NCBI GenBank assembly: GCA_018238545.1
Contig: JABCTC010000035.1
Location: forward strand, 1-35,270
Length of the DNA stretch: 35,270 nucleotides
Direction of reading: 5' to 3'
Source of the DNA: Candidatus Heimdallarchaeota archaeon
GTDB lineage: Archaea > Asgardarchaeota > Heimdallarchaeia > Heimdallarchaeales > Heimdallarchaeaceae
Below, in pieces: positions 751 through 17,736 of this stretch. Both the position numbers and the translations under genes were made by a program. Each line of letters begins with the position of its first letter. Position 1 is the stretch's first letter. The notes under the pieces are model-generated. The model was given only the letters and a program-made list of their open reading frames with translations, had not been told where the DNA came from and searched no databases.

Positions 751-762
751 AACGTTTAAATT
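751..762 (+). promoter_or_regulatory. Archaeal TATA box for SRP RNA
   Basis: TTTAAA at 755-760, about 27 nt upstream of the 5' end of the SRP terminal stem. Confidence 0.55.
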
Positions 763-786
763 AGTTCCACATCCTTTTGCTATTAC

Positions 787-1128
787 TAGAGGCTGAGCCG
801 ATAGCAACGACTATAACCGGGGACCTAGGGCGTCCTTATACCAGAAGTGCTCTATATGCTGGGGTGAAGACTGATGCTGAGGCTTAGTAATGGTTGATAC
901 GCCTCGCTTGGAAAGCGTCGAAGCATCGACCCATGGGATTGCATATTTCGGAGACGATTTCGGAGGAAATCGTTAGAAAGGATAAGGTCAAAATGAGTCA
1001 GGCACGGAAGTGAGCAGCTCTAAGATCAATATGTGGTGCTTATGGCAATCGGTGTGGAGCCTAAGGGCAAGAAACGGCTTCCTGCGCTATGTCAAACTTC
1101 AGGTCGCTATGATTGGCTCAGTTGTCTA
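787..1128 (+). ncRNA. ffs: Archaeal SRP (7S) RNA, precursor including terminal stem
   Basis: Helix 8 GTCAGGCACGGAAGTGAGCAGC; helix 6 ACGATTTC-GGAG-GAAATCGT; Alu domain with helix 3/4 loop complementarity TAGGGC/GCTCTA; helix 5 pairing TGCATATT/AATATGTG and CCATGGG/CTTATGG; terminal stem 787-812 with 1102-1128, followed by a T-tract. Confidence 0.95.
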
Positions 1129-1217
1129 CTATTTTTCCACTAACCTATTGATTGCTGAACAGCTGTTGTCAACAGAGAAATGGTCATAAAAGAAAAAAAG
1201 TGAAAAAGATTATTTGA

Positions 1218-1802
1218 TTAATATTGTTCACAAAGAACTTCGAAATAGTTGTGTGGGTGAGAGCAACAGGGACATGTGTGTGGAGGTTCTTCTCCTTCAT
1301 GTACATAACCACATTTACGGCATACCCATTTAACTTTCTCTTCTTTCTTGAAAACTGTCTTGCCTTCTACTTGCTCTAACAGTTTTTTGTAACGTTCTTC
1401 ATGATGAACTTCAGCTTTTCCTATAGCTCTAAGTCTATCTGCAACTTTAGGAAAACCTTCTTTTTCTGCTATATCAGCAAATTCAGGATACATTATAGTA
1501 TACTCATAATTCTCTCCAGCTATAGCGGCTTTCAGATTTGTTATTGTATCGTCCATAACTAGAGGTGCTTCAGCTTCAACATGTAGGGCTTCCTCTTTAT
1601 GTTTTAGTTTCTTTCTAACTTGTTTCAGCATTTGGAAGTTCCATTTTGCGTGCTCTCTTTCATTGTCTGCTGTAACTAGAAAAATATCTGCTATTTGTTC
1701 ATATCCTTCTTTTTTAGCTACTTTTGCATACATTGTATAGCGGTTTCTTGCTTGGCTTTCACCGATGAAGGCCTTTGCTAGATTTTTTATTGTTTCACTC
1801 AT
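1218..1802 (-). CDS. rbr: Rubrerythrin
   Basis: [23 protein letters not shown] di-iron ligands; C-terminal rubredoxin-like WVCRKCGY...CPCC.HP. Confidence 0.95.
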
Positions 1803-17657: not shown

Positions 17658-17736
17658 GGGGCAGTGATCTAGCTTGGCCCATGATGCCACTCTCACACAG
17701 TGGATGTCGCAGGTTCAAATCCTGCCTGCCCCACCA
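17658..17736 (+). tRNA. tRNA-Val (anticodon CAC), CCA encoded, no intron
   Basis: Acceptor GGGGCAG/CTGCCCC, anticodon arm CCACT-CTCACAC-AGTGG, T arm GCAGG-TTCAAAT-CCTGC, discriminator A then CCA. Confidence 0.97.

Follow-up and report, generated by a model that had tools for sequence, protein, structure and literature searches.

The SRP RNA of Candidatus Heimdallarchaeota archaeon very likely matures by splicing: EndA, the tRNA splicing endonuclease, would excise it from its precursor at a bulge-helix-bulge (BHB) motif, RtcB would ligate its ends, and the resulting 304-nt ring would be the main working form. What is new, and supported by the data below, is lineage-wide, BHB-directed circularization of a non-permuted SRP RNA.

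A BHB encloses the SRP RNA gene

Coordinates are positions in the window, the whole 35,270-nt stretch of contig JABCTC010000035.1 that was analyzed. We identified an archaeal SRP RNA at 804 to 1110 as a match to the Rfam model RF01857 (96.7 bits, E = 7.6e-21), which lies above the gathering score of 96.5 bits. Model positions 1 to 317 are consecutive, and the domain order is thus normal, in agreement with an earlier reading of the window that had called the gene non-permuted. The genome (family Heimdallarchaeaceae, f1; 92% complete) contains this single copy, and a search of it for a permuted or second copy returned none. The features of the locus are the following:

755–762, plus strand: TATA-like box TTTAAATT, immediately preceded by an A-rich BRE-like stretch; putative promoter, from sequence
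785–807, plus strand: putative 5′ leader of ~23 nt, lost at the first cut; start site placed from the TATA spacing
787–801, plus strand: 5′ arm of the outer (leader-trailer) helix; 787–790 pair with 1125–1128 and 792–801 with 1113–1122
802–805, plus strand: 5′ strand of the BHB central helix, TAGC; from sequence and covariation
806–808, plus strand: bulge 1, AAC, with the predicted cut after 807; the joint in congener RNA starts at the equivalent of 808
808–1111, plus strand: predicted mature 304-nt circular SRP RNA; from RF01857 and the identical junction in congener RNA contigs
817–866, plus strand: Alu-domain helices 3 and 4, limits approximate; from the Rfam alignment
955–972, plus strand: helix 6 tip with a GGAG (GNAR) tetraloop at 962–965, predicted SRP19 site; from the Rfam alignment
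995–1020, plus strand: helix 8 with a GGAA tetraloop at 1006–1009 and the AGCAG symmetric loop, predicted SRP54 site; from the Rfam alignment
1106–1109, plus strand: 3′ strand of the BHB central helix, GCTA; from sequence and covariation
1110–1112, plus strand: bulge 2, TGA, with the predicted cut after 1111; the position equivalent to 1111 is the last base before the joint in congener RNA
1112–1136, plus strand: 3′ trailer, with the outer-helix arm at 1113–1128 and a T-run at 1132–1136, a probable terminator
1218–1802, minus strand: rubrerythrin gene, a convergent neighbor outside the mechanism; NCBIfam NF045767, 256.6 bits, above the cut-off

The sequence-only reading had placed the outer helix at 792–801 with 1113–1122, the central helix at 802–805 with 1106–1109 and the bulges at 806–808 and 1110–1112, and all of these coordinates proved correct. 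The inner helix of GAC (809–811) with GTC (1103–1105) is likewise as proposed, and a U-G pair between 812 and 1102 adds a fourth pair to it. The motif has the exact 3-4-3 geometry, with flanking helices around a 4-bp central helix and, 3′ of it on each strand, a 3-nt bulge. In a genome-wide scan for BHBs with a span of 20 to 400 nt on both strands of 3.6 Mb, the SRP site came first of 19 strong BHBs by G-C pairs. The ordinary continuous terminal helix 1, which is present in most archaea and thus usual, although not obligatory (PMC2905702), is missing here, as only three to four pairs precede the BHB. The window and its sister assemblies share a 2-nt insertion past the inner helix (812–816), giving a product of 304 nt versus 302 nt in most congeners. 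Sister assemblies of this species include GCA_018238645.1, GCA_018238245.1, JGI 3300040951, and JGI 3300040952.

Two other pairings compete with this BHB. The sequence-only reading had treated dominance of a CGAC/GTCG register as a refutation of the motif. This was wrong, because that register yields either a second valid BHB or a 5×5 internal loop. In the shifted BHB, ATAG (801–804) pairs with CTAT (1107–1110) as the central helix, the bulges are CAA and GAT, and the product is 306 nt. Using a nearest-neighbor model on a minimal construct, we obtained −23.2 kcal/mol for the 5×5 loop, −21.5 kcal/mol for the BHB, and −20.3 kcal/mol for the shifted BHB, so that the internal loop is favored over the BHB by 1.7 kcal/mol. 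The entire region folds no better than shuffled sequences (z = −0.07). With this z score and the 5×5 loop as the lowest-energy fold, folding energy was discarded as support for the BHB: folding alone cannot choose among the three pairings and does not favor the BHB, the support for which comes from conservation and RNA data. The bulges of tRNA introns in the genome were considered as a guide to the register and were too mixed to serve as one; in the window, a tRNA-Val(CAC) gene at 17658–17736 has no intron.

The signals flanking the gene recur among relatives. TTTA(A/T)A is located 48 to 59 nt upstream of the first cut in 23 of the 24 f1 genes scored, and a T-run lies ~20 nt downstream of the second cut in most f1 genes. 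Based on the positions of these two elements across f1, the precursor is outlined at ~350 nt. A sigma-70 promoter scan of the SRP locus gave no match, as expected for an archaeal promoter.

The 5′ end of the window differs from the remainder. Its first 500 to 600 bases have a G+C content of ~50% versus 34% for the genome, and they encode the end portion of a 2-oxoacid:ferredoxin oxidoreductase beta subunit. In four sister assemblies, the match to the window starts only at position 689, and a hydrolase gene is present there instead. A recent insertion or a chimeric join probably explains the region from 1 to ~690, and it leaves the SRP gene and its promoter untouched.

The BHB is conserved in one order of Asgard archaea

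We gathered SRP genes across the order, the class, and the phylum and scanned the gene ends for a BHB, with the chance level derived from shuffled 3′ ends. The motif is conserved in relatives, as 35 of the 36 genes of the order, which come from three families, contain it, versus 3.2 by chance; at the strict setting, these numbers are 32 of 36 and 0.5, respectively. The BHB is limited to this one order among the Asgard genes sampled. A strict BHB was detected in 2 of 82 other Asgard genes from 18 families, which is at chance (2.6 expected), and helix 1 is plain in most of these 82 genes. Two sister orders (families f5 and f7, which we take to be, probably, Hodarchaeales and Gerdarchaeales) have a plain helix 1 of 8 to 10 bp followed by a T-run. 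The idea of a general Asgard or archaeal trait was rejected on these counts together with those for Methanobacteriota (0 of 25) and Thermoproteota (2 of 30). A match in family f12 turned out to come from a continuous helix 1 with its pairing slipped, while one of the Thermoproteota matches, in relatives of Hyperthermus, is real.

An alignment of the SRP flanks, which had been proposed as a check for covariation, was run on 26 genes at the level of sequence only. In it, both partners have changed in 14 of 15 pairs and 90.7% of cells are paired, counts that overstate independence because the genomes are related. None of 500 shuffles reached the score of the BHB alignment, and slid controls gave 30 to 39%. 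In the outer helix, two-sided changes occur at all eight pairs tested across the order; the sequences that make up this helix are unrelated among the three families, with constant geometry and product sizes of 301 to 312 nt. For Ca. Heimdallarchaeum, whose closed chromosome CP084166.1 belongs to the same family as the window, the predicted ring is 305 nt.

The family comparisons also bear on the register. In family f3 (presumably Kariarchaeaceae), all 48 central and inner cells are paired in the register proposed for the window, the fourth central pair varies (U-G, U-A, C-G, and A-U), and bulge 2 is always AGA. One subgroup has a C-G pair changed to G-C, which had seemed to favor the shifted register as the true one; we rejected this register, as it breaks in five of the eight f3 genes and its joint is unseen in RNA (see below), and retained it only for six genes that fit nothing else. 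These six are among the seven f1 genes lacking the proposed register, the seventh of which (L046) has no strict BHB. In a separate observation, a second, 5′-truncated SRP RNA copy (L065; G021:C152:1360–1668) is located ~280 nt downstream of the intact one and lacks the 5′ BHB arm; it may have arisen by duplication or from a mixed assembly.

Congener RNA is joined at the predicted position

As query for RNA data, we used L011, a gene from the same genus, because it shares the most 31-mers with other species; the results therefore describe congeners of the window's species. In 11 RNA runs from five studies, 77 to 89% of the L011 words were present, and the source labels of the runs with SRP RNA are marine sediment, sediment, and ice metagenomes. 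Ahead of the RNA test, the proposed register gave a 302-nt product for L011 (1500–1801), and precisely this product was found in congener RNA contigs. The search for the junction, made in assembled contigs on L011 rather than in raw reads, detected 1801 joined to 1500 in four of four runs, representing four studies. The joint steps back 302 nt with zero ambiguous bases, is free of microhomology, and occupies a single position in all four runs. In RNA sense, it reads ...GUCGCUAUG/CGACUAG... (the slash marks the joint), which is after the second base of each bulge; the corresponding predicted junction of the window's ring is ...GUCGCUAUG/CGACUAUAACC.... The joint predicted from the shifted register (1499–1802 on L011) was not seen in the four runs.

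The coverage of the contigs is restricted to the ring. In a 900-nt L011 stretch, the four runs gave no cover outside 1500–1801, leaving leader and trailer uncovered. Contigs with the joint are about as deep as the body (in run X1, 116 versus 81 to 200), contig depth being a rough measure of the ring's share. One contig in run X3 circles all 302 nt plus 21 nt, and overlapping contigs span every ring position with no shared break, which argues against a universal reopening site. The same joint occurs in several sequence variants, including one with the last 21 bases of the window's RNA and one starting with CGGCUAG like genome G013. In metagenome DNA contigs, the joined pattern had 0 matches, and the unjoined genomic 3′ arm had 7. 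Run X12 was flagged "probably DNA," yet its cover is confined to the ring as in the RNA runs.

We considered whether the joint is a DNA form or an artifact of assembly or of library preparation, such as template switching or ligation in the library step, in which case the RNA would be linear with ~340 nt and the stem would simply prolong its helix 1. The data consist of contigs only, X12 may be DNA, and the 5×5 loop is lowest in energy, all of which would fit. However, the base-exact joint is identical in four studies with differing library labels and has zero microhomology; contigs extending into leader or trailer, expected from DNA or from a linear RNA of 340 nt, are absent; and the distribution of joined and unjoined sequences in DNA contigs speaks against a DNA form. 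We therefore see hardly any chance that this explanation holds. A real joint could also arise by another route, e.g., by an Rnl3-type ligase acting on ends trimmed by a different nuclease, with the BHB being incidental. Minor circular SRP RNA forms from Sulfolobus, Halobacterium, Haloferax, and Thermococcus, for which the accessible text of the reports describes no BHB (PMC3326292, PMC12558985), provide some precedent. This route is nonetheless very improbable, because the joint follows the EndA rule exactly, after the second base of both bulges and at one position in all runs, and because compensatory change has maintained the 3-4-3 geometry across three families. Excision at the BHB followed by ligation remains the reading that we adopt.

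In run X3, a loose end at L011:1798 belongs to an RNA contig from a more distant relative, in which the 3′ tail is joined to the 5′ start as ...CAGGACUAAGUCUAGCC.... Compared with what the BHB rule predicts for L045, the nearest genome, this joint is short by four bases; it may reflect another register, trimming, or a permuted gene.

Probable processing machinery and proposed pathway

Two EndA-family genes are encoded in the genome (G000), at C109:22206–22802 and C102:46142–46723. The first contains the catalytic Tyr/His/Lys residues and the L1 loop, its best match is an Aeropyrum-type catalytic subunit (E = 4.5e-38), and its close relatives bear the name "Candidatus Heimdallarchaeaceae archaeon." The second looks like a structural subunit. 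Such a two-subunit set fits the report that Asgard EndA is a heterotetramer with relaxed specificity (PMC5829648). Two near-equal RtcB genes (on C65 and C21 of genome G000) and genes for both SRP19 and SRP54 are also present. RNase P RNA was considered as a further BHB product and rejected, since its ends pair without a BHB by eye and it is absent from the genome-wide BHB matches. For 5S rRNA in G000, there was no Rfam match at E values up to 1, and a simple motif search was also empty.

We propose that transcription from ~785 to 1136, i.e., from the TATA-like box near 755 to the T-run, would give the ~350-nt precursor, in which leader and trailer would pair to form the BHB around the SRP RNA. 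EndA would then cut after 807 and 1111, freeing the SRP RNA like an intron, and RtcB would join its ends to yield the 304-nt ring. This ring would be the main steady-state form and would bind SRP19, for which the role of the helix 6 tip is established (PMC4731332), and SRP54. We infer the two enzymes from the cut rule and from Thermoproteus tenax, in which EndA cleaves the BHB of the SRP precursor (PMC4731332). Helix 1 in the ring would consist of a 3- to 4-bp stem under a 7-nt loop, with the covalent joint replacing the usual terminal helix 1 of 8 to 11 bp. The species of the window would be expected to behave like its congeners.

The sequence-only reading had suggested a circular SRP RNA; the joined product is borne out by the congener contigs, while the part of the suggestion that makes the ring the functional form is an extrapolation from them. 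Because the congener ends are joined exactly where the BHB predicts, a closed ring is the most likely state of the working RNA, and contig depth and continuity indicate that the ring is probably the working form. Alternatively, the ring could be an intermediate only, reopened after ligation at the joint or elsewhere, so that the working SRP RNA is linear. Both kinds of reopening are documented, at the joint for archaeal pre-16S rRNA and elsewhere for Thermococcales 23S rRNA (PMC7758197, bioRxiv 2026.03.23.713588), and RNA ends are not visible from contigs. We regard this alternative as unlikely, since joint-bearing contigs are as deep as the body, every ring position is bridged with no common break, and reopening plus trimming at the joint would leave a helix 1 of just 3 to 4 bp. 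These considerations favor the closed ring as the working SRP RNA.

An apparently permuted SRP gene in sister family f2 and a BHB in Hyperthermus relatives

In the one genome of sister family f2, the SRP gene (L331; G024:C167, minus strand, ~255–561) appears circularly permuted. Model positions 7–21 are located at its 3′ end, behind a GAAA-capped hairpin in the place of helix 1; the break would be in the helix-3 loop, with the native ends linked by this hairpin and a product of 304 nt. When positions 7–21 were moved to the front, the score was 107.7 versus 93.8 bits, which is above all 47 control pieces (best, 102.2). A BHB at the new ends was not found in this f2 genome.

Outside the Asgard archaea, about nine GC-rich Thermoproteota of one family (presumably Pyrodictiaceae), including the cultured Hyperthermus butylicus, have a BHB with a covarying central helix. 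The loci are L317:1480–1835 (H. butylicus), L265, L310, L312, L313, L315, L318, L320, and L322. In this group, the BHB is canonical with purine-rich bulges and is located just outside an intact helix 1, and the SRP genes are non-permuted; rings of 330 to 335 nt are predicted from the loci, with ~332 nt for H. butylicus. As a lead, we note that this BHB may be independent of the Heimdall one. A phage search with the Hyperthermus locus gave no match.

Implications

The f2 and Hyperthermus results suggest that this route is not a one-off. More broadly, we give even chances to a scenario in which the whole Heimdallarchaeia order matures a normal-order SRP RNA by obligatory splicing, with the ring as scaffold outside hot habitats, in which "circularize first" is the step that precedes permutation (as in f2), and in which the route arose at least twice in archaea (as in the Hyperthermus relatives). 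The Heimdall findings would turn the circular SRP RNA of Thermoproteus from a two-species oddity tied to scrambling and heat into the counterpart of a lineage-wide Asgard maturation route, in which the gene is unscrambled and the sampled habitats are ordinary sediments. They would also yield a sequence of events that can be tested for permuted RNA genes, circularization before permutation, and would mean that in the class nearest to eukaryotes the tRNA splicing machinery also processes a universal housekeeping RNA. Because the sampled sister orders keep a plain helix 1, the circular SRP RNA is no evidence on the eukaryotic ancestor. The junction could serve as an RNA-only marker for these uncultured archaea.

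Comparison with known systems

A literature search, in which coverage of subscription papers was incomplete, identified neither a BHB-processed non-permuted SRP RNA nor any processing of Asgard SRP RNA, so that the earlier statement that this is undescribed in Asgard archaea stands within that coverage. The permuted SRP RNA of Thermoproteus, reported for T. tenax and T. uzoniensis (Plagens et al. 2015, PMC4731332), is the only circular SRP RNA made via a BHB for which we found a description. As in Thermoproteus, a short leader (23 nt there, probably ~23 nt here) and a trailer form a BHB at the precursor ends, the ring of ~300 nt lacks a normal helix 1, and RNA has one precise circular junction, seen here in congener contigs; EndA makes the cuts there and would do so here. 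In Thermoproteus, however, the gene is permuted with its ends at the helix 8 tip, and ligation is required to rebuild that tip, whereas in the Heimdall gene the order is normal and a joint at the native ends replaces helix 1. Because its gene is not permuted, the Heimdall SRP RNA is not of the Thermoproteus type. Moreover, Thermoproteus is a hyperthermophile, for which heat stability was proposed as the reason, and the trait is known from two species; here, the runs are labeled as sediment and ice metagenomes, and the trait extends over a whole order.

Archaea including Asgard archaea have BHB-excised circular pre-16S and pre-23S rRNAs and circular mature 23S rRNA (PMC12918454, PMC7758197). 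Like these, the Heimdall SRP RNA is a stable RNA in normal order that would be excised from a leader-trailer stem at a BHB and circularized, by EndA and RtcB in the case of rRNA and presumably here. Unlike them, it would come from a stand-alone transcript of 350 nt, and its BHB is separated from the functional core by 3 to 4 bp instead of lying in a long processing stem. Circular 7S/SRP RNA junctions from ordinary SRP genes have been reported in Sulfolobus, Halobacterium, Haloferax, and Thermococcus (PMC3326292, PMC12558985, bioRxiv 2026.03.23.713588). According to the accessible text of these reports, those forms are internal segments or of low abundance, their function is unknown, and no BHB is named; the Heimdall ring is instead full length, has one junction and a conserved BHB, and is apparently the main form. 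Finally, the locus resembles archaeal pre-tRNAs with BHB introns in its 3-4-3 geometry, in the cut rule, and in that the enclosed piece leaves as a circle. The roles are reversed, though: the "intron" is the functional product, while the joined leader-trailer "exons" of ~48 nt have no known role.
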